Origin: Caedibacter taeniospiralis
GTDB lineage: Bacteria; Pseudomonadota; Gammaproteobacteria; Francisellales; Francisellaceae
Direction of reading: 5' to 3'
NCBI RefSeq assembly: GCF_002803295.2
Contig: NZ_PGGB02000009.1
Coordinates: 21,318 to 53,317 of the forward strand
Length of the DNA stretch: 32,000 nucleotides
Below are positions 3 through 32,000 of this stretch, one piece after another (positions within the stretch are counted from its first letter, which is position 1; the number at the start of each line of letters is the position of its first letter). The position numbers and the translations under genes are program-made. The notes beneath the pieces are model-generated. The model saw nothing but the letters and a program-made list of their open reading frames with translations. It was not told the origin of the DNA and did no database searches.

Positions 3-275
3 ACTGCACATTTATTGGAATATGCAGATAAGGGTTTTGTCTCCCCTGTATTAGTTGATAGTACCGTCCTGACACAGATCTATAATGGTGTCTACGGTTA
101 CCTTGGCTATCAAAATCTTTCTGATCAATATGACAAGCATTATAGGAACGAGTATATTGTTTTAGGTAATAAGAGTCAGGAAGGATTAAATAGGGATAAA
201 CAGGGTGCCTCGGGCCTCATGATAGATTTTGTATATCCATACACAAAATCGAATCGGCTATCCTCGGCGGTATAA
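3..275 (+). CDS. hypothetical protein, 5' end outside window; frame stops just inside the GC-rich repeat
   Basis: The frame is open from nt 3 (the ORF track lists it from TTG at 15). I recognise no motif. TAA at 273-275 lies a few nt inside the repeat block that starts at 268, so the native 3' end may have been displaced. Confidence 0.35.
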   Translation, partial: TAHLLEYADKGFVSPVLVDSTVLTQIYNGVYGYLGYQNLSDQYDKHYRNEYIVLGNKSQEGLNRDKQGASGLMIDFVYPYTKSNRLSSAV

Positions 276-569
276 ATTTTGCCCGGGCCGCCCGCCTCAA
301 CGGTGCTTGTCCTCACAAATTCGCTACGCTCATTCCGAACAGACAACACGTTTCCGATTCTACTCTACGCCTTGGGTAAAAGCTTTTTCACAGACTTCGC
401 TCTGGCGCCTTCGGCACGCGGTATAAATTTTGCCCGGGCCGCCCGCCTCAACGGTGCTTGTCCTCACAAATTCGCTACGCTCATTCCGAACAGACAACAC
501 GTTTCCGATTCTACTCTACGCCTTGGGTAAAAGCTTTTTCACAGACTTCGCTCTGGCGCCTTCGGCACG
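268..569 (+). repeat. two head-to-tail copies of a 151-bp GC-rich unit (268-418 and 419-569), identical by eye
   Basis: Direct comparison shows cggtataaattttgcccgggccgcccgcctcaacggtgcttgtcc...ctctggcgccttcggcacg occurring twice with period 151. Track ORFs 229-426, 279-530 and 430-705 are only translations of this repeat. Confidence 0.95.
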
Positions 570-664: not shown

Positions 665-1453
665 ATGTTCCAAGAAATCAACTATGCTATAGAGCTTCTA
701 TATGATCAGTTGAGCAAATCTGCAGAGGTTGATATCAGTAAAATTGCACAGGCATTGGTTAATTCACGCCATATTAATTCAATCGTACGGGCTATAAAAC
801 ATTATGAAAATCATAAATTTAACGCGCTTTTGCCCAACAACCCTGACAATGCAGCGTTTAACGCCATCAACCAAAGCCTGCTGCCACTTTATACTTATTT
901 AAAAGATCACAATATCAAGCTTGAGAGCTTTATTGGTGACTTGAATAAAATGAGAATAGCCAAAGTTGAGTTGAACGAAAAACTGGAGAATTTACTTGAG
1001 CTTATAACAAACAATACAGACAAGACAAAAGCCCCACTGAATAGTTATCTTTACACCTATTACCAGGAAGGGACTGTTCAGGTTGGTGATAAACAGATCA
1101 AGGTATGTTTGCCAAGATGTGTTCTGGATGCGTATGATCCTGCTTCTGCTAGTAAGAATACGGGATCATATAATCTGCAAACAGTGGTCAACAATCTTAA
1201 AGAAGCCTTAGAAGAAGCTAGTGATAGTGTTCTCCAAACGCCCATCGCAAAAATTAACGACACGAGAAAGAGTCTGGATAAATGTTATGAGGTAGTCTTA
1301 AAAAAACCATTTAAAGAACAACTCGAGCATGATGGTAAAGTGCTATTTGAAAAGGCTCCGAACAACGAGTTAAACAAAGACTCGAAAAACATGGAGTGGC
1401 TGTTTTGTGATAATAACGGAAAAGAGAAGAATGTGAGTCTAGACAACGCATAA
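665..1453 (+). CDS. hypothetical protein (orphan, K/E/N-rich, effector-like composition)
   Basis: 262-aa ORF with coding-like composition throughout and no recognisable motif. The frame is also open upstream to 581, inside the repeat, so the ATG at 665 may not be the ancestral start. Confidence 0.55.
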   Translation: MFQEINYAIELLYDQLSKSAEVDISKIAQALVNSRHINSIVRAIKHYENHKFNALLPNNPDNAAFNAINQSLLPLYTYLKDHNIKLESFIGDLNKMRIAKVELNEKLENLLELITNNTDKTKAPLNSYLYTYYQEGTVQVGDKQIKVCLPRCVLDAYDPASASKNTGSYNLQTVVNNLKEALEEASDSVLQTPIAKINDTRKSLDKCYEVVLKKPFKEQLEHDGKVLFEKAPNNELNKDSKNMEWLFCDNNGKEKNVSLDNA

Positions 1454-3205: not shown

Positions 3206-4603
3206 TCAGATATAGCAGGCTTTTGCAACCTGATTTTGGTACTCCACAAGTGCTTGCCCAAGTTCTTGATCAGCTGCTACACCCGATGCTAATAGGGTAT
3301 TTGTTAGGGCAACAATATCTGTTCCACCAGCTAACCTAAGGCGCAAAGCATCAGCGGAAACACCAGTTAATAAGCTATGCACGGTGATCACTTTGGTGGC
3401 ACCTGCATTCTCGACATCAATCAATCGCGCCCCACTTAGGCCGTTTAAAATCGAAATAACTGTACTGTTGTTAGGCGTTGTAGCTGTGGTAATTAACTCC
3501 CTTAAGCGGTCAATATTTTCAGGACCCGACCAGGTTCCGTGCGAGCCCGGTCCTGCCAAGTTGGGCGAGTCGTGCGCATTAGCTGACGTATTGTGCGTAA
3601 TTGCTGGCTGCCCTGTTTCCAGTATGGTTAAGTGACCGTCTAGTACTCTTGAATTCCCTGCCACCCCACTTGTAACACCATCCGCGATTAATGGATGGTA
3701 TTTGACTATGACATTATCCTGGTTGCCTGTACCTATCGGCACTAAAAGTCGACCTAACTTCTGCTGTGCAACAAAGTAGACAAGCGTATTACCACAACGC
3801 GTTTCCATGGCAAGTGGTGTATTGGTCACTTGACTATCGTAAGTGTGAATCAAAGGTACGTTAAACGGATATACAAATTGTGCACCCGTCGTAGCGTCTA
3901 GCCAAGCAGCGGCATCTTCCTCACTAATATTTGCCGTATGATAAGCAGCTTCCAAAAGCACGCCTATGTTAGCACCAGCTGCTGCTGCAACAGCAGCAGT
4001 GAGTGGATTATTGACAACCGACACGGGGATGGTTTGACGGACAACCTCTCCTGTTACGGTATTGGTCGCATCAATGGTTATCATCAGCTGCTCGGCGCGA
4101 TAGCCGTTTGCACTATCTAGTACGTGTCCTCTGCGAGTTAGCACATTAACAGTTAATTGGCAGTCAGCACCATAGTGCAGTGTTCTTCCAGCACAGGTAT
4201 TTGTAACAACGTCTATACCAACTGGAACAGTGAAACTAAGGCTATACGGATCACCACTGCCTACCGTCATCACTCCGCTTTGGCGAACATCAAGGGTGTA
4301 GGTATTTTGATTAATAGCCGACGCCAGTAATGCTTTTTGGTTATTCACATCGCTTGCAACATGAACTGTTGTTGGGGTAACCCCGCCAGCAGTGTCACCG
4401 CCACCTCCGCCACCGCATCCACTGAGACCTCCTGCTACAGCTAAAGTAGCTAGCAAATACCTCGCAGCATGTTTGCGGAAGCGTGTGACATAGTCGTAAG
4501 TTTCGGCATTACTGACCAGGCTTATGCACTTTTTTTTATCAACACCTTTAGCGCACTGCGCTAGAGATGAAGCGATTTTTAATTGATTTTTTTCTGCTTT
4601 CAC
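3206..4603 (-). CDS. orphan lipoprotein
   Basis: 465-aa ORF with a lipobox, LLATLAVAGGLSG-C, followed by a GGGGGG linker. About 45 aa precede the signal peptide and there is no closer in-frame ATG. The gene is visibly GC-richer than its neighbours. Confidence 0.65.
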   Translation of the reverse strand: MKAEKNQLKIASSLAQCAKGVDKKKCISLVSNAETYDYVTRFRKHAARYLLATLAVAGGLSGCGGGGGGDTAGGVTPTTVHVASDVNNQKALLASAINQNTYTLDVRQSGVMTVGSGDPYSLSFTVPVGIDVVTNTCAGRTLHYGADCQLTVNVLTRRGHVLDSANGYRAEQLMITIDATNTVTGEVVRQTIPVSVVNNPLTAAVAAAAGANIGVLLEAAYHTANISEEDAAAWLDATTGAQFVYPFNVPLIHTYDSQVTNTPLAMETRCGNTLVYFVAQQKLGRLLVPIGTGNQDNVIVKYHPLIADGVTSGVAGNSRVLDGHLTILETGQPAITHNTSANAHDSPNLAGPGSHGTWSGPENIDRLRELITTATTPNNSTVISILNGLSGARLIDVENAGATKVITVHSLLTGVSADALRLRLAGGTDIVALTNTLLASGVAADQELGQALVEYQNQVAKACYI

Positions 4604-12914: not shown

Positions 12915-13733
12915 ATGAGAAAACAAACAATATTGATTACAGGGTGTTCGCATGGTGGTATTGGCTATGCTACAGCGAAATATTTAAAGACGCTTGGGCA
13001 CTGCGTTTTTGCCTGTGCAAGACAGCAAACGGACGTTGAGCACCTCATAAGCGAAGGATTTGATGCTTATTTGATGGATGTTAGAAATGATGAGCAAATT
13101 AATGCGGTATTAGCCGATATATTAAGAAAAACAGATAATAAGCTCGATGCTCTGTTTAATAATGCAGGATACGCGCAGGCTGGCGCGCTTGAAGATCTTC
13201 CAACCGAATATCTACGAGAACAATTTGAGACAAACGTATTTGCTTTGCACAAACTCACCCGAGTGATACTAAAGGTCATGCGCAAACAAGGATATGGAAA
13301 AATTATCCAACATGGCTCTGTTTTGGGTTTGGTTTCCCTCAAATATAGAGGGGCATATAATGCAAGTAAATACGCAATCGAGGGTATTGCTGACACTATG
13401 CGTCAGGAGTTAAAAGGCTCAAACATATATATGAGCACATTAAATACGGGTCCTATTACGAGCAAGATCAGGGAAAACTCAATGGAAACTGTAAAAAATA
13501 TCGATCTGAAAGACTCGGTGCATATCAGGGAATATGAGAAAATAATGACAGGAAAACATAAACCTGTGCCATTTAATAAAGAAGTGATTGCTGTCGCCAA
13601 AGTGATTGAGAAAATACTTGAAGCCAAAAAACCTGCTCCTAGGTATAGCATCACTAAATTCACGCTACTTGCAAAGCTGCTCAAAAGAGTGCTGCCAACC
13701 AGAGCGTTAGATTATATTTTAAATAAATTTTAA
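12915..13733 (+). CDS. short-chain dehydrogenase/reductase
   Basis: TGCSHGGIG (TGxxxGxG) and YNASK (YxxxK) motifs. ATG at 12915 is preferred over TTG at 12906. Confidence 0.85.
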   Translation: MRKQTILITGCSHGGIGYATAKYLKTLGHCVFACARQQTDVEHLISEGFDAYLMDVRNDEQINAVLADILRKTDNKLDALFNNAGYAQAGALEDLPTEYLREQFETNVFALHKLTRVILKVMRKQGYGKIIQHGSVLGLVSLKYRGAYNASKYAIEGIADTMRQELKGSNIYMSTLNTGPITSKIRENSMETVKNIDLKDSVHIREYEKIMTGKHKPVPFNKEVIAVAKVIEKILEAKKPAPRYSITKFTLLAKLLKRVLPTRALDYILNKF

Positions 13734-13849
13734 AAGTATAGAAATGCTTGCAAAGCTGCTGGAAAAGCCGTTGACAGTGCTTTTCAGCACGACAGAACGC
13801 AATAGTCAGAAATAAATATAATCACCGCCAAAATAAATGAGGGTCGAAA

Positions 13850-14227
13850 ATGAAAGAAATTGTGCAAACTAATCATGCCCCACAAGCCATAGGTCCCTAC
13901 GTGCAGGCAATTAAGGCAAATGGAGTGCTTTACACATCTGGTCAAATCCCATTGTTGGCTAATGGCGAACTGATAAATGGTGGTATTCACGAGCAGACCA
14001 GACAAGTCATGCTGAACTTAAAAGCGGTCATTGAAGCGGCAGGAAGCTCCATGGGAAGAGTCATAAAAACCACATGCTTTATTAAAAACATGGATGACTT
14101 TGCCTTGTTTAACGAAGTATATGCTTCATTTTTTGATGGAATCACTCCGCCTGCACGCTCTTGTGTTGAGGTAACCAGACTACCAAAAAATGTGCTTATC
14201 GAGGTTGAAGCGATTGTTATGCTGTGA
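13850..14227 (+). CDS. ridA: RidA/YjgF family enamine/imine deaminase
   Basis: 125 aa. APQAIGPYVQAIKANGVLYTSGQIPL and C-terminal RSCVEV...VEIEAI are typical of the family. Confidence 0.9.
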   Translation: MKEIVQTNHAPQAIGPYVQAIKANGVLYTSGQIPLLANGELINGGIHEQTRQVMLNLKAVIEAAGSSMGRVIKTTCFIKNMDDFALFNEVYASFFDGITPPARSCVEVTRLPKNVLIEVEAIVML

Positions 14228-14341
14228 AAAAATCTTAATGTGATTAAAATATAATCAAAATTTATAGAAATGGTAAATATCGCACAAAGATTTAGTTAAA
14301 CTCCTATTTATTTCGGTTTTGCTTTTGTCCATACTGACACT

Positions 14342-14535
14342 CAAGCAACGGATGGCAACCTTAACGGATGAAGGTAGAAATGGATAGCCCCTCCCCCGCA
14401 TGGATGAATTGATGAGGATAAGGATATCCTGAAAACTAAAGGATAAAGTAAAGGAAGACATGGATAGCACTCCACCCACATGGATGAATTGGTTAGGATA
14501 GGGATATCCTGAAAACCTGACATTTTTCTCTTTGT
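14342..14535 (+). ncRNA. candidate CsrA/RsmA-titrating sRNA (RsmY/RsmZ/CsrB-like); boundaries approximate
   Basis: There are 12 GGA triplets on the + strand within 14350-14504, against 3-4 on the opposite strand. Several sit in an A(N)GGAUG context (acGGAtg x2, catGGAtga x2). Two hairpins present AGGA/GGGA in the loop (agga-taaggata-tcct at 14415-14430, agga-tagggata-tcct at 14495-14510). The last hairpin is followed by a T5 run at 14523-14527. There is no credible ORF. Confidence 0.45.
14380..14516 (+). repeat. two diverged 57-nt direct repeats, period 80 bp, each ending in a GATATC-centred palindrome
   Basis: Copy 1: atggatagcccctcccccgcatggatgaattgatgaggataaggatatcctgaaaac (14380-14436). 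Copy 2: atggatagcactccacccacatggatgaattggttaggatagggatatcctgaaaac (14460-14516). Confidence 0.85.
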
Positions 14536-15638
14536 TCCCTAATCCCCCATTCGATGTGTTCTAGCAATAATGAATGGTTGATGTACTTATTTCTAGCGTG
14601 ATACAGAATGCCAAGAATTTCAGCCGAAGCTGGGGCATTACCTAATGCAACGTATACATTTCTAAGCCAGGACTGGTAACCAATTCGGCGAATTGCTGAG
14701 CCTTCAGTGTGCTTCAAGAAATCTTCTTCTGACCATTGTGAGAGGGAAATGAGAGTCTGGTTGGTTAAATATGCTCGCGCCAAAAAATCATTTTCGCATG
14801 TTATTGGTGCATTTTTATTGATGGGACACACAAGCTGGCAATCATCACAACCGTAGATACGATTACCAATGGCCTGGCGATATTCCATCGGAATAACCCC
14901 TTTATTTTCAATAGTTAAGTATGAAATACACTTGTTGGCATCGATCATTCGATTTTCAACGATGGCGTTAGTTGGACAAGCCTTAATACAGGCCTGGCAT
15001 TTGCCACACTGATCGTGGGGCTTTGGTTGGGTAAATGCGCTAAAATCAAGACTGGAATAAATGCAGCCGATGAAGAAAAAAGAGCCCTCCGTGGGATGGA
15101 GCAAGTTACTGTTTTTGCCTATCCAGCCAAGTCCAGCCTTTTCGGCTAAGGGCTTTTCAAATACTGGTGCACTATCAGTGAAAACACGAGCCGCATATTC
15201 AGGGAAAAGCGTTTGAATATACTCAGATAATTTCACAAGTTTATTGCGTAAAACTTTATGGTAGTCTCTGCCGTGGGCGTAGATGGAAATAGCTGCCTTA
15301 TCAGAGGGCGTGCTTAATTTTTTACGAATATTTTTAATATCATAGCTTTGCGGTAAATAATTCAATCTCACAACGATAACGCTTTTAGTACCTGCGACAA
15401 GCTCCTCTGGCGTGTAACGTTTGCTGCCATGTTTGGTCATATACTCAAGCTCAGCGTGATAACCCTGTTCAATCCACAGGTGATATTTGGGAATATACTC
15501 ACTCAGGTTGCAATCGGTTGCACCAATATCAGAAAAATTAAGAGTTTTAAGTGCAAAGTCTTTAATGCGACTCCATTGTGTCGTGCTTACGTTACGCATT
15601 GTGTTGTCTGCTGTGAATTCAAGCACTTCTGACGGCAT
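14493..15638 (-). CDS. queG: epoxyqueuosine reductase
   Basis: Two 4Fe-4S motifs ([12 protein letters not shown] and CDDCQLVCP) and a QueG-like N-terminal domain. Start set at MPSEVLEF (15638) because the longer track ORF runs through the tRNA-Ser gene. Confidence 0.88.
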
Positions 15639-15715: not shown

Positions 15716-15803
<88 letters not shown>

Positions 15804-25443: not shown

Positions 25444-25513
25444 CGGACTACTTGGACAATCTAAGGAACGGTAAAAACGTGGTTAATCTATCTGATTTCA
25501 AAACAGGATAGTT

Positions 25514-25560
25514 GATATTATGAAGTATCAGTTAGCTATACTTTCCGATATTATAATATC
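25514..25560. promoter_or_regulatory. two operator-like palindromes upstream of ORF 25573 (O1 gatattat-ga-agtatc 25514-25529; O2 gatattataatatc 25547-25560, containing a TATAAT)
   Basis: O2 is a perfect 14-bp palindrome and O1 has the same half-sites with a 2-nt spacer. Outer arms ttgatattat (25512-25521) and ataatatcaa (25553-25562) are also complementary. Confidence 0.5.
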
Positions 25561-25572
25561 AAAGATGCTTTG

Positions 25573-25842
25573 ATGAGACTTCACATCAAGCTACCAACAC
25601 GACTCACCACCGTTACTCTACATGATATGCTTTATCAATTATTGAGCCTTAAAATCACAGGCAAACCAGACAGTAAAAATCAAGTTATGAATTGGCTCAG
25701 CCAGAGGCTGTCAGATAGGCTTGGTAAATTGCCTAAACGCCGCAGTATGAATACTGGCTTATCTCAGTATGCTGTTGAGGAAATATTAGAAGAAATCGTT
25801 CAGCCAGAAATACTAAAGGAGTATGATAACGTCAACTGTTGA
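25573..25842 (+). CDS. small orphan protein, possibly ribbon-helix-helix DNA-binding
   Basis: 89 aa from ATG 25573. The N-terminal RLHIKLPTRLTTVTLHDMLYQLLSL fits a beta-strand plus helix RHH-like pattern. This assignment is weak and from memory. Confidence 0.45.
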   Translation: MRLHIKLPTRLTTVTLHDMLYQLLSLKITGKPDSKNQVMNWLSQRLSDRLGKLPKRRSMNTGLSQYAVEEILEEIVQPEILKEYDNVNC

Positions 25843-25851
25843 GGTGGTGTT

Positions 25852-25865
25852 GATACTATAGTATC
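25852..25865. promoter_or_regulatory. third operator-like palindrome O3 gatactatagtatc
   Basis: Perfect 14-bp palindrome 10 nt after the stop of ORF 25573-25842. It shares the consensus GATAYTATARTATC with O2. Confidence 0.45.
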
Positions 25866-26118
25866 GAAATGACTTATTCAATCGCCCCCATCCTCAAATT
25901 GAGGAGGTTAAAACAAGAGGTGTAATATCCACCCTCCCAGTGGGGAATGGCAATTTAAGCATATGCGTTGTGTATCCTTAAATACTTACCACTACCCTAG
26001 ACATCAATTTTATTTTAGACTATCACAACGTCTTAAACCGTGTCTAGGTTCGCTACCGAATAGCTGACTATCCACCAGTGTGGCACTGTTTAACTTTTGT
26101 GGATGCTCGGGAAAGCGA

Positions 26119-27045
26119 ATGAAATTTCCAATGAGGTATAGCCTACAAATGGCTATAGAAAAACTTCGGCTAACGGAGGTTTACACCCAACAGCAGGACA
26201 GGGTAAGGTATTTGATTGACGTGTTAAGACATGATGAAATTAGCGCTTTTAACGCTATCCCTAGTGTGTTTGGCGAAACCCGTATGATTCTTCACAGCTT
26301 GCCAGCTGATGTAGCCTATCATTTTATCAACCATGGTTTGATTAGCTATGAGAGTCACATAGATGAATATTACACCGATGCAGGTGGAAAACGCTTATCA
26401 GAGTTAATAATTAAGCTTAAAGATGAATACGACAAGGTAGGCGGCGGAGAAATTTTTTGCCGTTGCATGCCTGACATAATGGATATAGCCGACATTGCCA
26501 GTTATGGTGTTAGCAAGGATGGGTGCCAGCTTGATATTAAAAGCCTGTACTATAATTCAACCGTCTTTGACCCACGTTTTAAAGCAAGCCACCTTTTGGG
26601 CAGGAAAGAGGGGCTGGGGCGTGTTATCTGTCAACTGACCACGTTCCATAGTGTCAAGCAGGGAAATGGGATAGATAGAAATTACTTTGAATATGGCATA
26701 AAAGCCGATACTGATAGCCTATTCATTGATGCAAACGGATTTGAACTTCTCCGTGAGAAAATGGCAGGCGAAAGTAAAAAAGACAGACCCGAGGCATCGC
26801 CCCAAAAAAAGCCAAAGGAGCCAAAGGATAGTGCGCAGGTATCACCACCAACAAGCCAGGCCCTTGCATACATTAACCAGCTTATTCATGACTTCAAAGA
26901 TTCAACCTGCTATCAAAAGTATAAGGACGAAACCCAGCAGCAATTAATCAAGGACTGGCTAAAAGAAAGAGGATGCTCAGGAAGAGAGCAGGACGTTATT
27001 GCTAAACTCATTAGCGAGCATTATGGTATTAAAACCAAACGGTAA
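26119..27045 (+). CDS. orphan protein (308 aa from ATG 26119; GTG 26080 also possible)
   Basis: Long ORF with coding-like composition. It has a P/K/E-rich linker (DRPEASPQKKPKEPKDSAQVSPPTSQ) between a ~225-aa N-domain and a ~60-aa C-domain. I recognise no motif. Confidence 0.6.
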   Translation: MKFPMRYSLQMAIEKLRLTEVYTQQQDRVRYLIDVLRHDEISAFNAIPSVFGETRMILHSLPADVAYHFINHGLISYESHIDEYYTDAGGKRLSELIIKLKDEYDKVGGGEIFCRCMPDIMDIADIASYGVSKDGCQLDIKSLYYNSTVFDPRFKASHLLGRKEGLGRVICQLTTFHSVKQGNGIDRNYFEYGIKADTDSLFIDANGFELLREKMAGESKKDRPEASPQKKPKEPKDSAQVSPPTSQALAYINQLIHDFKDSTCYQKYKDETQQQLIKDWLKERGCSGREQDVIAKLISEHYGIKTKR

Positions 27046-27106
27046 AAATTATTTCTTGCCATATTAGAATCCCTTTAAATACATGCTTTTTAGCTAACTA
27101 AATTCG

Positions 27107-27132
27107 ATATTGGCAAATGGTATTGCCAATAT
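27107..27132. promoter_or_regulatory. operator-like palindrome upstream of the alpA-like gene
   Basis: atattggcaa-atggta-ttgccaatat, perfect 10-bp arms, about 120 nt upstream of ATG 27251. Confidence 0.4.
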
Positions 27133-27250
27133 TGGTGTATGGCTATTCCCATATCATTGCCCTCATAATCTCTCTCGTTAGCACACAAGACGAGGCTGAA
27201 AAGCTTCTTTAGTGTGTGAATATTTTAAATTAATTTAAGAGGGAGAAAAA

Positions 27251-27457
27251 ATGCAAAACAACATTTTAAGGTTACCAGAAATTTCAAAACACTGTGGCTT
27301 TTCACGCTCAACAGTATATCGACTAATCCAACAGGCAGACTTTCCAAAGCCAATTAAGCTGACATCACGCTCAAGCGGCTGGTTGGAGTCAGACATAAAC
27401 CAATGGATAGATAACCGCATAAAAGCGCGTGATAGCAAATTAAACAAGGGGGCGTAG
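27251..27457 (+). CDS. alpA: AlpA-family phage transcriptional regulator / excisionase-like HTH
   Basis: 68 aa. ILRLPEISKHCGFSRSTVYRLIQQADFPKPIKLTSRSSGWLESDINQWI is the classic Phage_AlpA pattern, with a strong RBS (aagagggag). Confidence 0.85.
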   Translation: MQNNILRLPEISKHCGFSRSTVYRLIQQADFPKPIKLTSRSSGWLESDINQWIDNRIKARDSKLNKGA

Positions 27458-27459
27458 TC

Positions 27460-27994
27460 ATGATCAACGTTCAAGAATATAAATCCTTTAAGCAAGCAGT
27501 ATCAGTACGAGAGCCTTACACATTTTTGGAGCCTAAAGCACAATTTACAAACGGGTGCGATAGGATGTTTGAGTATGGATTTGAGGAAAATGAGGACTAC
27601 ATCTTGCTTAACAAATTTGTTAAGCAAGATAACGGGCACGGAGGTCACAACAAGGTGGATTATTTCCTATCTATCGACTGCGCCAAAGAAATAGCAATGC
27701 TTCAGCGTAGCGATAAAGGAAAACAAGTTCGCAAGTATTTTATTGAGTGAGAAACAGCTATATGGTCTTACTAACGGCTATACGCTCACAGAGGCGATTA
27801 ATGAAATATCAAAGCAGCTCAATGAGATTAAACAAATGGGAAGCGCCTAGGGGCGAAAAGGTGCTAGCTTAAGAAGAACCAAAAGGGAAGCTAGGCGAGA
27901 ATTTAAAAGGCTGGTTAACGAGGCACAGTGCACACTTGACTTAGGCTTGTATGGGGAGTTAGGAACTAAGGGGGTAAGTTATGTTAAGCAATGA
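27460..27994 (+). pseudogene. AntA-like phage antirepressor, inactivated by one frameshift and one nonsense codon
   Basis: AntA-type N-domain (FEENEDYILL...GGHNKVDYFLSIDCAKEIAMLQRSDKGKQVRKYFIE). The frame breaks at gag-TGA (27748-27750), where the family usually reads YFIECEK. It continues in the next frame as EKQLYGLTNGYTLTEAINE...QMGSA, hits TAG at 27848-27850 (a likely former TGG), then reads GRKGASLRRTKREARREF... to 27994. Confidence 0.6.
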
Positions 27995-28559
27995 TATTCA
28001 ATTAAGTCAACGTCAATTAGGAACACTTGAAAAGTTGGTTTTAAACGGTGAGGTATCAAGGTTTGAGTTAAACCGTTATGTGGGATTATACACACCTGAA
28101 ACTATAAGACAATTACGTAACAAGGGAGGTGTTATCCATATGGTTAGAAAACCACACATTGACCGGTATGGGGTGAAGGGTTACACGGGGTTTTACAGCC
28201 TGGATAAAAGCCAGAAAGATGGTGCTAGTAACCAAATGCGAGGGGATGAAGTGATGTTTAATCATAGCTTTAAGCAAAAAATAAAAGGAAACCACGTTGG
28301 TGATTCCCTGTTTACTTCGCTCCCCACAAGGTTATACCGCGCCCTGTCGGGTGTGGAAACCCAGGCAGAAGGGCGCAATCATGCGTTAAATGGTGTCAAT
28401 ATATTTACATTATGGCCTCTTTTGTTTTTCCGAGTTGTCGGGTGGTGGCGTAAATACAAGACCCGTAAGGGGAATACCGTCGACCCTTCTTTGTTAAGGT
28501 TACCAACCCCCTGGCTTATTCTGGTAAAAACACGGGAGTCAAATCATGTCACTCAGTAA
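27981..28559 (+). CDS. phage protein with N-terminal winged-helix (HTH_39-like) domain
   Basis: aa 8-75 (LSQRQLGTLEKLVLNGEVSRFELNRYVGLYTPETIRQLRNKGGVIHMV...GYTGFYSL) fit the HTH_39 pattern. The W/R-rich C-terminal half is unusual and may be degenerate. Confidence 0.5.
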   Translation: MLSNDIQLSQRQLGTLEKLVLNGEVSRFELNRYVGLYTPETIRQLRNKGGVIHMVRKPHIDRYGVKGYTGFYSLDKSQKDGASNQMRGDEVMFNHSFKQKIKGNHVGDSLFTSLPTRLYRALSGVETQAEGRNHALNGVNIFTLWPLLFFRVVGWWRKYKTRKGNTVDPSLLRLPTPWLILVKTRESNHVTQ

Positions 28560-29463
28560 GAAATACTTTTATCTCAAGCTTAAGGATAACTTTTTTGACC
28601 GAGAAGAAATTCGCGTCATTCAAGGCTTAGAAAATGGTGATACATACGTTTGCATTATTTTGGAAATGTATTTGAGAAGCCTCAAACGCAATGGTATTTT
28701 AATGATGTCAGAGCGAATTCCCTACAGCATTAGGACGCTATCAAGTGTGTTAAAACGTCGGCAAGATGAGATCAAATATGCGATCGATTTATTCAAAGAA
28801 TTTGGGTTAGTTGAGATACTGAATTCAGGGGCTATTTTCATGGCTGATATACAAGATTTTATTGGCGAATCTTCAACAGAAGCTGATCGAAAAAGAGCTT
28901 ATAGAACGAAAATTGAAGTAGAGAAAAAAGAAAGTTTTAAACACTTGGAAAACGGGACATCTGTCCAGACAAGTGTCCGAGGCGACTCAAACAAATCCGA
29001 TGAAATCGTTCAAAAAAGACCAATGTCGGACAAATGTCCTGACGTTTCTCCACCAGAGATAGAGATAGAGTTAAAGACAGAGTTAGAGTTAGAGTTAAAA
29101 GAGAAAAACGCACGCGAGGAAAACTCGCATGCTAACGCGCAAAAAACAGACACTGAAAACGCTGACAAAAATACTCGATTTAAGAAGCCAACCATTGACG
29201 AAATTCAAACTTACGTTAATCAGCAAAATTTAATCAATTTCAACACGGGACATTTTTTCGATCATTACGAATCAAATGGCTGGATGATTGGCAGAACAAA
29301 AATGAAGAGCTGGCAGCACGCTGTGTACAACTGGCATAGACGCAGCCAGGAGTTTGGTAATTGTAACGGTAGTAACGCAAAAAACCAAAGTCAATCAATG
29401 CCTCGCACAGGGCTAGATGGCAAGAGCGGTTACTACAATGATTTGGATCAAATTCCGTTTTGA
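28546..29463 (+). CDS. phage replisome organizer
   Basis: The N-terminus KKYFYLKLKDNFFDREEIRVIQGLENGDTYVCIILEMYLRSL matches the Phage_rep_org_N pattern. The C-terminal FKKPTIDEIQTYV...FFDHYESNGWMIGRTKMKSWQHAVYNW matches the conserved phage C-terminal domain often fused to it. Confidence 0.8.
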   Translation: MSLSKKYFYLKLKDNFFDREEIRVIQGLENGDTYVCIILEMYLRSLKRNGILMMSERIPYSIRTLSSVLKRRQDEIKYAIDLFKEFGLVEILNSGAIFMADIQDFIGESSTEADRKRAYRTKIEVEKKESFKHLENGTSVQTSVRGDSNKSDEIVQKRPMSDKCPDVSPPEIEIELKTELELELKEKNAREENSHANAQKTDTENADKNTRFKKPTIDEIQTYVNQQNLINFNTGHFFDHYESNGWMIGRTKMKSWQHAVYNWHRRSQEFGNCNGSNAKNQSQSMPRTGLDGKSGYYNDLDQIPF

Positions 29464-29474
29464 GGAGAGAGAAA

Positions 29475-30203
29475 ATGCAGGTTTCAAAAATACTTAAAAA
29501 CATCAGAAACAACTCAGAAAGCAAGGCGACTGAATTATGCGAGAAACACAAGGTTGAATTTCGCTTTAAGTGTCCAACGTGTGTTAAGGAGCATGAGGCT
29601 GATAAGTTGCATGAGGCAAAGCTTGAAAAGCGAATCAAGGACAGTGGATTAGCCAAAAGGCAGTTACAGGCAAACTTTGCAAATTTTAAATCAAGTCAAG
29701 CACTTGAGCAGTGCGAAGCATGTCAAAGTTTTGCGGACAACTGGGAACAGGTATTCACTCATGGTCAATCCATGCTGATGATTGGCGGTGTTGGCACAGG
29801 GAAAACGCATTTAGCCAGTTCAATTGCCAATCAGGTCATGGCAAAACACTACGCGCACGTCAGGTACACAACCTTCATGATGATGACTTTCGCAATGCGT
29901 GATGCTCAAAATTTACATCCAAGCCTAACGGGGGTAATCAATCAGTTTACAAAACCAGAGCTGCTGATTATTGATGAAATTGGGGTAAAGGGGTCGACGG
30001 AGTACGAATTTAATTTACTTAACGGAATTTTAGATACTCGCTATGCCGAGTTATTGCCCACAATTCTCATCACGAATGCCAACTGGAATCAACTGGTTTC
30101 AATGATTGGATACAGGGCTATTTCACGATTTACTGAGACAGGTAAAAGTTTGAAATTTGGTAACGGGGATTACAGGAAAATTTTAGCAGGAGGTGCAGCA
30201 TGA
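29475..30203 (+). CDS. DnaC/IstB-like AAA+ helicase loader
   Basis: Walker A GGVGTGKTHL and Walker B LLIIDEIG. RBS gaggagag lies before ATG 29475. The gene sits directly after the replisome organizer. Confidence 0.85.
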   Translation: MQVSKILKNIRNNSESKATELCEKHKVEFRFKCPTCVKEHEADKLHEAKLEKRIKDSGLAKRQLQANFANFKSSQALEQCEACQSFADNWEQVFTHGQSMLMIGGVGTGKTHLASSIANQVMAKHYAHVRYTTFMMMTFAMRDAQNLHPSLTGVINQFTKPELLIIDEIGVKGSTEYEFNLLNGILDTRYAELLPTILITNANWNQLVSMIGYRAISRFTETGKSLKFGNGDYRKILAGGAA

Positions 30204-30553
30204 GCTTTGAAAATAGTTTTAGAGAATTAATTGCCGCTGAGATTATGCCGCTGAGTCAAAAGCTCGCGCGTCAGAATCAATTGATTGAGTTGATGGCTGA
30301 CAAGTTACAAAGGCTGGAAACCGCTAGAGGGACCACAGGTCTCAAAAAAGAACTTTTATCTCTGCGTGATGTTGAGAAGATTATCGGGCGCAAGCAGTGT
30401 TGGATTTATAAGCAAATGAACGCCAAAGAATTTCCTGCAAATTTATCCATGGGGAGCCGTGTTTTTTGGAAGCGTGAAGATATTGAGCGTTTTGTTGAGA
30501 TGACAAAAAGTGGCGAAGTTTATCAAGCCAGCAATCGAACTACGGAGGACTGA
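30200..30553 (+). CDS. AlpA/MerR-type HTH protein with N-terminal coiled coil
   Basis: The C-terminal LSLRDVEKIIGRKQCWIYKQMNAKEFPANLSMGSRVFWKREDIERFV repeats the AlpA-like pattern. An ATGA overlap with the upstream stop indicates translational coupling. Confidence 0.6.
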   Translation: MSFENSFRELIAAEIMPLSQKLARQNQLIELMADKLQRLETARGTTGLKKELLSLRDVEKIIGRKQCWIYKQMNAKEFPANLSMGSRVFWKREDIERFVEMTKSGEVYQASNRTTED

Positions 30554-30556
30554 ATC

Positions 30557-30763
30557 ATGAAAACAACTAACGAAATGTTGAAATATCGCACGCAGCGATT
30601 GATTCAGATGGATAAAGAAGAAATTGCAAACGATAAAAACGCAAATAAAGGCGATTTTAGTGACTTTTTAAAAAAGATAAACACAAAACATTACCGCAAT
30701 GACATTCGTTTAATTTTACCCTATTTACGACGCAATGCAGAGGTGTTCTGGTGTAGAAGGTAA
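30557..30763 (+). CDS. hypothetical phage protein
   Basis: 68-aa ORF with RBS ggagga 7 nt upstream. No motif recognised. Confidence 0.45.
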   Translation: MKTTNEMLKYRTQRLIQMDKEEIANDKNANKGDFSDFLKKINTKHYRNDIRLILPYLRRNAEVFWCRR

Positions 30764-31062
30764 CGAAAATGCAAAGAGCCAGGTTAGTCACATTCAGTAA
30801 GAAGTCATGTTGCACAAACTTTGATGAGTTAAGTTGGTAACATTGAACGTATAGAAGTGTGGAATACCAAACGATGAGCGTCTTGAAATCAGCACAGCAA
30901 CAGCTACTACAAAGCCAAACTTTATTAAGCATTACATTAGACGCTAATGGGGGAGGTGGGGGCTGAGTGTGTCTTCGGTGGCAAGTTTGAATTTCCATCT
31001 TTAGACGCATTTCAGGCGTGGATTGATAACGAGGGCAATTTATTCATTTAACATTTGAGGGT

Positions 31063-31824
31063 ATGAGTGAGGGAGTGAGGGGAGTGAATCAAGAAATACA
31101 AACAGCCAATAATCAGGTGCCCATGGTCACCGATGAGCAAATCGGTAAGTATCTGGAGTCAATGGGGAATAACCTCAATCCCGTGCATAGAACACAGTTT
31201 ATTGAGCTTGCCAAGGCGTTTAATTTGAATCCATTTTTAAGGCAAATCCATGGCATTGCCTACGGTGATAAGTTTAACATCGTTGTGGGTTATGAGGTTT
31301 ATATTCAACGCGCTGAGCGCAGTGGTCAACTCGCAGGTTGGAAAGCCTGGACAGACGGAAAAGCGCCAGATTTAAAAGCCTGTATCGAAATTAAGCGCAA
31401 GAACTGGGTAGAAGCGTTTTATCACGAGGTTTATTTTGATGAGTATGTGCAAAACAATCCAATGTGGAAATCTAAGCCGCGCACCATGCTTAAAAAAGTC
31501 GCGATTGCCCAAGGGTTTAGAATGGCGTTTAGCCTGGAGTTAGGCGGAATCCCCTACACGCAGGACGAGTTGCCATCGAGCGAACCCATAGATGTCACCG
31601 CAAAGCAGGAGCGCTCAAAAAAAGGACCAGCACACCCAGTGGTAAACAAACTGTTATTTAAAATCCAGGAGGCAGGGCTGGATGCTAAGGATTTTGCCAA
31701 ATTTGCGCAGTTTAAATCGGAGGATTTAGAGAGCTGTCAACATGCGTTAAATAACTTGATGGACTTAGTTAAAGCTTACAAAGAATCAAAGCAAGAAAAA
31801 GCAAGAAAAAGCAAGAAAGGGTAA
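31063..31824 (+). CDS. recT: RecT-family single-strand annealing recombinase
   Basis: FIELAKAFNLNPFLRQIHGIAYGDKFNIVVGYEVYIQRAERSG and NPMWKSKPRTMLKKVAIAQGFRMAF fit the RecT family pattern. Confidence 0.75.
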   Translation: MSEGVRGVNQEIQTANNQVPMVTDEQIGKYLESMGNNLNPVHRTQFIELAKAFNLNPFLRQIHGIAYGDKFNIVVGYEVYIQRAERSGQLAGWKAWTDGKAPDLKACIEIKRKNWVEAFYHEVYFDEYVQNNPMWKSKPRTMLKKVAIAQGFRMAFSLELGGIPYTQDELPSSEPIDVTAKQERSKKGPAHPVVNKLLFKIQEAGLDAKDFAKFAQFKSEDLESCQHALNNLMDLVKAYKESKQEKARKSKKG

Positions 31825-31830
31825 TTGACC

Positions 31831-31944
31831 ATGAAGCTTTATGATATTAATCAGGAAATTATGCAGGTTATCTGCGAAGCGGTTGACGTTGAAACAGGCG
31901 AAGTGATCGCTGAGCTTGATACCGACGCTGCGAGCCATGGATAG
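31831..31944 (+). pseudogene. Gp157-like phage gene truncated after ~32 codons by the 75-bp repeat
   Basis: MKLYDINQEIMQVICEAVDVETGEVIAELDTD resembles the N-terminus of Sipho_Gp157-type proteins, which usually sit next to recT/erf. From 31926 the sequence is the repeat, and the frame stops at TAG 31942-31944. Confidence 0.5.
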
Positions 31945-32000
31945 CGGAACGCGAGGGCGAGTAGACCCGGGTAGCCTTGCGCTGTTGATCAGCAAGCGAC
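31926..32000 (-). repeat. 75-bp segment, copy R (inverted relative to 569-643); cut by the window end
   Basis: Exact reverse complement of 569-643. Identity starts at cgctgcgagccatgg and runs to the last base of the window. Confidence 0.95.

Follow-up and report, generated by a model that had tools for sequence, protein, structure and literature searches.

What is encoded by the GGA-rich tract that lies between the convergent genes ridA and queG in Caedibacter taeniospiralis, a 'killer' endosymbiont of Paramecium? A preliminary description of this locus, made from its sequence, had proposed that the tract specifies a small RNA (sRNA) of the RsmY/RsmZ/CsrB class, which would act as a sponge for the regulator CsrA. 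We have followed up this proposal in a 32,000-nucleotide (nt) stretch of DNA that carries the tract (hereafter, the window), together with the queG loci of other bacteria. The results described below suggest that the tract is a conserved small-RNA gene on the + strand and that its product is most likely a decoy that sequesters CsrA, a reading that we consider probable though well short of certain.

GGA triplets are concentrated on one strand at the 3′ end of queG

Twelve GGA triplets lie on the + strand within 155 nt (14350-14504), beginning at 14350, 14366, 14382, 14402, 14416, 14422, 14441, 14453, 14462, 14482, 14496 and 14502, compared with four on the − strand. At the window-wide rate of 0.0125 GGA per nt, about 1.9 would be expected in a stretch of this length, and the next-densest 155-nt stretch on either strand of the 32 kb contains seven at most. 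The figures given in the preliminary description (12 triplets, against about two expected and three to four on the opposite strand) are thus borne out, as are the CsrA-like contexts that it listed: aacGGAtgg, aacGGAtga and two copies of catGGAtgaa were all found in the tract. Six of the triplets (at 14416, 14422, 14441, 14453, 14496 and 14502) have an AGGA or ARGGA context, and the other six are embedded in A(C/U)GGAU.

From the GGA count, matches to a covariance model and DNA identity to relatives (both described below), we predict a small RNA of ~185-190 nt that carries all 12 GGAs and extends from 14343 to 14530 (+). Its 5′ end at ~14343 is predicted from a −10 element; its 3′ end is uncertain, and was set after a T-run. 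The tract had been placed in the gap between ridA (13850..14227, +; a Ribonuc_L-PSP family gene by Pfam match, upstream of the element and outside it) and queG (epoxyqueuosine reductase; 14493..15599, −; coordinates from the open reading frame (ORF) and from homologues). This holds for most of it: the gap (14228-14492) would contain the promoter and the first ~150 nt of the RNA gene. However, the final ~35-40 nt are shared with the end of queG, whose stop codon is at 14493-14495 (−), such that the 3′ end of the RNA gene would coincide with the last ~12 queG codons.

The element is conserved in related genera and its GGA motifs are invariant

Homologues of the element were found at the queG 3′ end, on the strand opposite the gene, in Cysteiniphilum litorale (L081), C. 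halobium (L082 and L083), Fastidiosibacter lacustris (L084), two metagenome contigs (L088 and L089) and a more distant metagenome taxon whose QueG is 64% identical (L132). The gene on the other side varies, being ridA in the window, L084, L089 and L132, and rpiA in the Cysteiniphilum-type loci, which still keep the element. Because ridA can be swapped for rpiA while the element stays at the queG 3′ end, we conclude that it is linked to queG and not to ridA. The non-coding segment of the relatives is 84-95% identical to that of the window, whereas the adjacent coding DNA of queG and ridA is only 70-77% identical. Identity above that of the flanking coding DNA indicates that purifying selection acts on the non-coding sequence itself.

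Among six taxa, none of the 18 GGA columns varies, compared with 24 of the 74 other columns (Fisher one-sided p = 0.002). Substitutions hit the C/U position directly before GGA but never the GGA, and all six GGAs of the basic module (see below) are also kept in the diverged L132 copy. Conservation of the GGA pattern in orthologous spacers, which had been put forward as a check on the original proposal, was therefore found, the pattern being invariant in six other taxa. In the relatives, six or seven GGAs occur in ~100 nt, and nowhere else on that strand of the locus are they denser.

We built a covariance model from the close copies of the element; it scored these copies at 110-116 bits and L132 at 58.7 bits (E = 2e-15). 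In the window it matched twice, at 14343-14438 (111.5 bits) and at 14446-14518 (58.7 bits), the latter match corresponding to a second module. The model gave no match in the queG loci of Francisella novicida or Allofrancisella, nor in L090, a queG locus (QueG 63% identical) with an ATP/ADP translocase gene. Neither did it match any of 80 other gammaproteobacterial queG loci (L001-L080), which were collected by a QueG-alignment scan of genome contigs and are distant gammaproteobacterial sequences, with no Fastidiosibacteraceae among the matches listed. A BLAST search of the locus against plasmids gave no match. Scanning metagenomes with AGGATANGGATATCCTGAAA returned 40 loci, only one of which is a homologue (L121, an independent contig of the same species that shares the duplication seen in the window); the remainder look like chance matches, many of them apparently coding. 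One further metagenome contig (Ga0209163_1000142, L104) has an unrelated GGA-dense stretch at ~1210-1360 (+), with 10 GGAs in ~180 nt and ending in GGAGGATAGGGATATCCTGAAA, which scored only 16 bits with the model.

Two other readings of the conserved sequence were rejected. A short coding frame (ATGGATGGC...TGA, seven codons) is not maintained, since its ATG reads ACG in the window and in C. litorale. Similarly, a DnaA-box reading of TTATCCTCA was dropped because the sequence is not conserved, Cysteiniphilum having ATATCCTAT in its place.

Module anatomy and predicted RNA structure

Each relative has one module of ~95-105 nt with six GGAU motifs. From 5′ to 3′, this comprises CAAYGGAUGG near the 5′ end, AAYGGAUG in the loop of a first stem-loop (stem-loop 1), AUGGAUAG, a run of five to eight C residues, CAYGGAUGA and a terminal hairpin, AGGAUA-NGGA-UAUCCU. 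Successive GGAs in these single-module forms are 16, 16, 18, 15 and 6 nt apart, with minor variations, a spacing near the distance that is bridged best by a CsrA dimer.

Stem-loop 1 (14356..14377, +; CAACCUU-AACGGAUG-AAGGUAG) was predicted by RNAalifold and from covariation, and presents GGA no. 2 in an 8-nt loop (8-10 nt across the module forms). Both sides are changed in five of its seven pairs across taxa, a value reached by one of 500 shuffles, and pairing is 93.8% in the real structure as against 26-49% in slid controls. In Fastidiosibacter, one C-G pair is exchanged for U-A, and in L132 the stem is rebuilt as UAGCUUU...AAAGCUA, enclosing the same loop motif. Further downstream, between GGA 3 and GGA 4, lies the C-rich tract (CCCCTCCCCC; 14388..14397, +), which is kept as a run of 5-8 C in all taxa.

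The two hairpins that had been located at 14415-14430 and 14495-14510 do exist, but not with the 8-nt loops ascribed to them: when fully paired, they have 6-base-pair (bp) stems (AGGATA/TATCCT) and 4-nt loops (AGGA and GGGA). Hairpin A (14415..14430, +; AGGAUA-AGGA-UAUCCU), the counterpart of the terminal hairpin in single-module relatives, has one GGA in the stem and a second in the loop. All eight copies share an identical stem, with a loop that reads NGGA. Hairpin B (14495-14510, +; AGGAUA-GGGA-UAUCCU) lies within the second module copy. RNAalifold recovered both stem-loop 1 and the terminal hairpin independently. With respect to the latter, the queG stop codon falls inside the hairpin region in the window and in L084, and after the hairpin in C. 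litorale and L132. Since the position of the stop thus shifts between taxa, the invariance of the hairpin is not due to coding constraint.

The preliminary description included neither the overlap with queG nor a 66-nt direct repeat, which a repeat search detected at 14371-14436 and 14451-14516 (both +). The two copies are 85% identical at a spacing of 80 nt, and the repeat supplies half of the window's GGA count. The duplicated unit, found in the window and in L121, consists of GGA 3, the C-tract, GGA 4 and the terminal hairpin. Copy 1 (14371..14436) is the unit present once in the other relatives; copy 2 (14451..14516), which contains hairpin B, is also detected by the covariance model. The linker between them brings two extra GGAs (AAAGGAUAAAG and AAAGGAAG) and, by eye, resembles the 3′ tail of L088 (CCUUAGGAUUUUU) minus its T-run. 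This resemblance points to loss of the stop signal from the first copy, after which the two modules would be made as a single RNA. As judged from these comparisons, the single-module form is the ancestral one and the duplication is a lineage-specific event that doubled the number of sites from six to 12.

Promoter, upstream region and 3′ end

The −10 candidate CATACT (14330..14335, +) had already been noticed and was regarded as weak. Its columns are in fact conserved, reading CATAAT in five relatives and TATAAT in L132. Indeed, L132 has TTGAAT-N16-TATAAT on the GGA strand, a 10/12 match to the sigma-70 consensus. On the basis of the conserved −10 element and the L132 promoter, we take the GGA strand to be the RNA strand, with transcription predicted to start at ~14342-14344 (most simply, ~14343). 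No recognisable −35 element was found in the main clade, including the window. Six taxa have kept a region that extends from ~−95 to −37 relative to the predicted start (14247..14306, +) and is made up of block A (14247-14265, AAATATAATCAAAATTTAT), block B (14270-14289, ATGGTAAATATCGCACAAAG) and block C (14291-14306, TTTAGTTAAACTCCTA). Blocks B and C are partly retained even in L132, the most distant relative. This is presumably a regulator-binding region and, given the conserved blocks and the lack of a −35 element in the main clade, transcription appears to be activator-dependent.

The preliminary description had found no convincing LetA/GacA palindrome upstream, and we agree: no GacA/UvrY 18-bp box (TGTRAG-N6-CTYACA) with three or fewer mismatches occurs in 13551-14736. 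The TAGAAAT half-site that it offered instead (14267-14273) falls in a non-conserved stretch. The conservation of the upstream region across genera suggests a dedicated regulator of a type other than GacA. Block B (TGGYAAAT.TC.CACA) is only loosely like the LetA consensus, and we treat this as an unverified resemblance, as we do a CRP-like reading of the same block (TGGCA-N6-TCACA). By eye, block B does not qualify as a sigma-54 site, since the spacing of GG and GC is unfit and TGGC is not conserved. On the opposite strand, blocks A and B make up a sigma-70-like promoter (TTGCCA or TTTACC, 17-18 nt, TATATT; 9-10 of 12 matches) directed away from the RNA gene, at 14277..14248 (−) in the window and at L081 4282-4310, L084 4249-4278 and L088 3179-3208 (+ of each locus). 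In Cysteiniphilum it faces rpiA, but in the window and in Fastidiosibacter it runs antisense into the ridA 3′ end; either a divergent promoter or a site for an activator could account for it.

At the other end of the gene, the ggtt/aacc extension of hairpin B and the TTTTT at 14523-14527 (+), which together had been read as a terminator, are both present. The T-run is a possible 3′ end inside the last queG codons, but it lies 5 nt past the extended stem and the terminator is unconvincing: a scan for intrinsic terminators made no call on the RNA strand of the window, L081, L084, L088 or L132. In all relatives, T-rich runs occur 8-20 nt past the terminal hairpin, inside or just beyond the last queG codons. 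Candidate stems are AUCCU...AGGAU in L088, with UUUUU after it, and CACGG...CCGUG in L084, with AUUUUGAUU after it. The queG strand itself has a terminator-like hairpin with a T-rich tail (14481..14458, −; L084 4131-4149, +), which is the complement of GGAUAG plus the C-tract, the C-tract thus being part of this structure. It may be, then, that queG transcription ends inside the RNA gene.

The element occurs together with csrA

In Fastidiosibacter lacustris, the element is separated by 3.5 kb from a canonical csrA (L084 384-572), whose product shares 75% identity with E. coli CsrA. Proteins named CsrA are also found in C. taeniospiralis, Cysteiniphilum, Facilibium and related metagenome-assembled genomes. 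The Fastidiosibacteraceae clade is the sister group of Francisella, and no Francisella CsrA was present among the best CsrA matches; a published inspection of Francisella likewise failed to find a CsrA orthologue (PMC8360588). Fastidiosibacteraceae thus have both the element and csrA; for Francisella and Allofrancisella, csrA is reported to be lacking, and no element lies next to queG in the loci scanned.

A 4.7-kb stretch of L084 (1-4700) contains tRNA-Ser and csrA (both −), then spoT/relA, queG, the GGA-rich RNA gene and ridA, such that a stringent-response enzyme, CsrA and the putative decoy are neighbours in Fastidiosibacter lacustris. In Facilibium subflavum, six tandem ORFs of 368-393 amino acids (aa), with no Pfam family on record, lie upstream of csrA (L131 674-8113). 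A GGA cluster beside csrA in this locus was discarded, as it is the complement of tRNA-Ser.

These results are consistent with a model in which a + strand RNA is transcribed independently from ~14343 to ~14530, under an activator that would act via the upstream blocks at ~−95 to −37 and not through a canonical GacA/UvrY box. The ancestral RNA would have been one module of ~95-105 nt, with six GGAU motifs ~16-18 nt apart: one near the 5′ end, one in stem-loop 1, two in weakly structured sequence around the C-tract and two in the terminal hairpin. One CsrA dimer would bridge two adjacent GGA sites, and several dimers would be held per RNA, keeping CsrA off its mRNA targets. Tandem duplication of the 3′ two-thirds of the module, giving 12 GGAs, would then have approximately doubled the capacity of each transcript.

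Comparison with known Csr/Rsm RNAs

Five criteria have been published for CsrA-regulating sRNAs, namely an intergenic location, GGA density, a terminator, GGA in loops and a UvrY/GacA site (Kulkarni et al. 2006, PMC1488887). The element has the location, the motif density and the loop GGAs, and lacks the UvrY/GacA site. CsrA, which the host of such an RNA should encode, is represented by the L084 gene and by the named proteins of C. taeniospiralis, Cysteiniphilum and Facilibium.

The element is like RsmY and RsmZ (RF00195 and RF00166; Pseudomonas, Legionella) in the size of its ancestral single module (~100-130 nt), in carrying several GGAs in hairpin loops and in unstructured spacers, and in being an independent gene in a spacer, in a host with a canonical CsrA/RsmA; moreover, PrrB_RsmZ is the only Rfam Csr/Rsm model to give a signal. 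Unlike RsmY and RsmZ, however, it has no TGTAAG-N6-CTTACA site upstream and no strong rho-independent terminator, its 3′ end overlaps a convergent coding gene, and its host family is Fastidiosibacteraceae. The proposed titration of CsrA dimers by many GGA sites is shared with CsrB and CsrC (RF00018 and RF00084; Enterobacteria, Vibrio), as is the increase in site number by repetition of a hairpin module, here from six to 12 in the window. CsrB and CsrC have 9-22 sites in 250-420 nt and require a UvrY box (PMC1488887). In contrast, the element is shorter, resembles them neither in sequence nor by covariance model, and is preceded by a conserved region of another kind. Candidates predicted in Helicobacter, P. 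putida and Acinetobacter (PMC1488887) resemble it in combining the expected density, location and structure with the lack of a UvrY/GacA site, but differ in that the upstream region of the element, itself of another kind, is strongly conserved across genera.

The Legionella-like setting under LetA that had been suggested at the outset does not apply. Legionella RsmY and RsmZ are controlled by LetA, and the element has neither a Legionellales host nor a LetA palindrome. The window QueG shares a 90% cluster, and 98% identity, with a protein named Caedibacter taeniospiralis, a species of the Fastidiosibacteraceae, order Thiotrichales.

Evidence against a decoy and alternative explanations

Several findings weigh against a CsrA decoy. 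The Rfam models that the preliminary description had singled out (RsmY, RsmZ/PrrB, CsrB/CsrC and rsmX) gave nothing at threshold, a gathering-threshold scan of the window with Rfam 15 returning tRNA only. In E-value scans, CsrB, CsrC, RsmY, RsmX and the other Rfam 15 families gave no Csr/Rsm match besides a weak one to PrrB_RsmZ (RF00166; 15.5 bits against a threshold of 44, E = 0.27 in a 501-nt search), and the five relatives gave no Csr/Rsm match at E up to 10. The proposed RsmY/RsmZ/CsrB-class architecture is supported by the invariant GGAs, the loop GGAs, the compensatory stem and the co-occurrence with csrA, but not by any existing family model. The missing GacA/UvrY box and the uncalled terminator count in the same direction. 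In addition, csrA lies outside the 32-kb window, its presence in the organism being deduced from the named C. taeniospiralis protein, and the decoy reading as a whole derives from sequence, both the transcript and its binding by CsrA being predicted.

The structural evidence is also mixed. The changes behind the covariation in stem-loop 1 stem from about two lineages, in an alignment fitted to the model; for the six close sequences alone the covariation is not significant (90 of 500 shuffles reach the observed value), and it becomes informative once L132 is added. Three GGAs per module have a pyrimidine at −1 (AYGGAUG), the position at which the consensus CsrA site from systematic evolution of ligands by exponential enrichment (SELEX) has a purine. 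Only two of the six GGAs per module are robustly unpaired in the predicted ensemble, the two loop GGAs (GGA 2 and the last GGA) having an unpaired probability of 0.64-1.0 in the relatives, compared with 0.0-0.9 for the other sites. Lastly, the folding energy is no better than that of shuffles for seven of the eight folded sequences (z +0.1 to +1.4), the exception being Fastidiosibacter (z = −2.5). Since decoy RNAs are typically loosely structured, we hold that weak global folding and partly paired GGAs neither support nor count against a sponge.

Might the element be a genuine + strand small RNA that works in another way, by base pairing (for example, of its C-tract with G-rich ribosome-binding sites) or by binding a different protein? 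The invariant C-tract plays no part in the sponge model, and such an RNA would also fit the lack of a canonical GacA box and of an Rfam Csr/Rsm match, and the partial pairing predicted for several GGAs. We nevertheless think this unlikely, as six copies of one motif would be superfluous in an RNA that acts by base pairing, which would also gain nothing from their duplication. Moreover, the distribution of the element tracks csrA, and selection is specific to the GGAU motifs, which number six, are regularly spaced and in two cases lie in hairpin loops; this is the signature of CsrA ligands (PMC1488887). Less likely again is a function related to queG, with the element serving as the queG 3′ untranslated region (UTR) or terminator, or as a cis-antisense RNA that controls queG mRNA via the convergent overlap. 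It is true that the element lies at or overlaps the queG 3′ end in all seven taxa, that terminator-like hairpins of the queG strand occur within it and that the RNA strand, having no clear terminator, may read into queG. However, the promoter elements are conserved on the GGA strand, where L132 is near consensus, and a U-G pair that extends the terminal hairpin is possible only on that strand. Furthermore, the coding overlap is short and shifting, the queG stop being before, inside or after the terminal hairpin according to taxon; conservation continues for ~100 nt past any plausible queG terminator; and UCC-repeat 3′ UTRs have no known reader.

A feature that acts at the level of DNA, whether as a set of sites for a DNA-binding protein or as a recombination or duplication remnant with no RNA product, seems to us very improbable. 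The recent tandem duplication, the arrangement of the motifs as direct repeats on one strand and the fact that the upstream blocks double as a promoter-like site on the opposite strand would all agree with it, but compensatory changes keep the RNA stem, motif spacing and loop placement are conserved across taxa whose coding DNA is only 70-77% identical, and the ancestral single module is conserved without any duplication. The CsrA decoy therefore remains our preferred reading. A bolder version of it, which is speculative and on balance rather doubtful as a whole, would have the element as a GacA/UvrY-independent Csr sponge, under a different regulator acting via the upstream blocks, that an obligate endosymbiont of Paramecium, with a genome of 1.3 Mb, kept and enlarged by duplication, and that is interlocked with queG such that queuosine-gene transcription and free CsrA influence each other.

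Implications

The element most probably represents a previously unannotated, conserved small-RNA gene, and a new sequence family of a well-known type of regulator. Its unusual features are the non-GacA upstream region, the convergent overlap with queG and the lineage-specific doubling of sites in an obligate endosymbiont. To our knowledge, no Csr-type decoy RNA has been described for Fastidiosibacteraceae. In our literature search, no paper connected CsrA or small RNAs to Cysteiniphilum, Fastidiosibacter or Caedibacter, and the dual RNA-seq paper on C. taeniospiralis makes no mention of the locus or of any sRNA (PMC7297999). Reports describe Cysteiniphilum both as an emerging pathogen of humans (PMC10228398) and as a candidate pathogen of corals (PMC12771372). 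If the decoy reading is correct, the RNA would be the missing CsrA antagonist in Fastidiosibacteraceae. It would also provide a clean case in which a regulator and its RNA antagonist are both absent from one sister lineage (Francisella), and one in which sponge capacity is tuned through module duplication. Knowledge of how Csr systems work would be left unchanged.

Genomic setting and other features of the window

Among the closest named proteins, QueG identity to the window is 75% for Cysteiniphilum, 67% for Fastidiosibacter, 65% for Facilibium and ~58% for Francisella. The G+C content of the window, 42.2%, agrees with that of the endosymbiont C. taeniospiralis, whose 1.32-Mb genome has a G+C content of 41.3% (PMC7297999). 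The genes around the element are housekeeping in character and follow in the order proS, lpxC, anmK, MFS transporter, short-chain dehydrogenase (SDR), ridA, (element), queG, tRNA-Ser, rplM-rpsI, sspA-sspB, hemF, clpS-clpA, prfB and lysS. The tRNA-Ser(TGA) gene (15716-15803, −) is immediately upstream of queG, and is spanned by a mechanically derived ORF of 447 aa; the real queG start is probably the ATG at 15597-15599, giving a protein of 368 aa.

Directly after lysS, at ~25500-32000, is a prophage-like set of genes for an AntA antirepressor, a phage replisome organiser, an IstB/DnaC-like ATPase, AlpA and RecT. Near the left edge of the window (267-569), there is a perfect tandem duplication with a 151-nt unit (2.0 copies, 100% identity), which also shows up as identical 18-mers. 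A second repeat, with a period of 150 nt (2155-2511; 2.4 copies, 82% identity), lies within an ORF of 507 aa (1311-2834, −). Neither this ORF nor its neighbours at 665-1453 (+, 262 aa) and 3206-4603 (−, 465 aa) has a Pfam match, and the three may encode endosymbiont-specific proteins.

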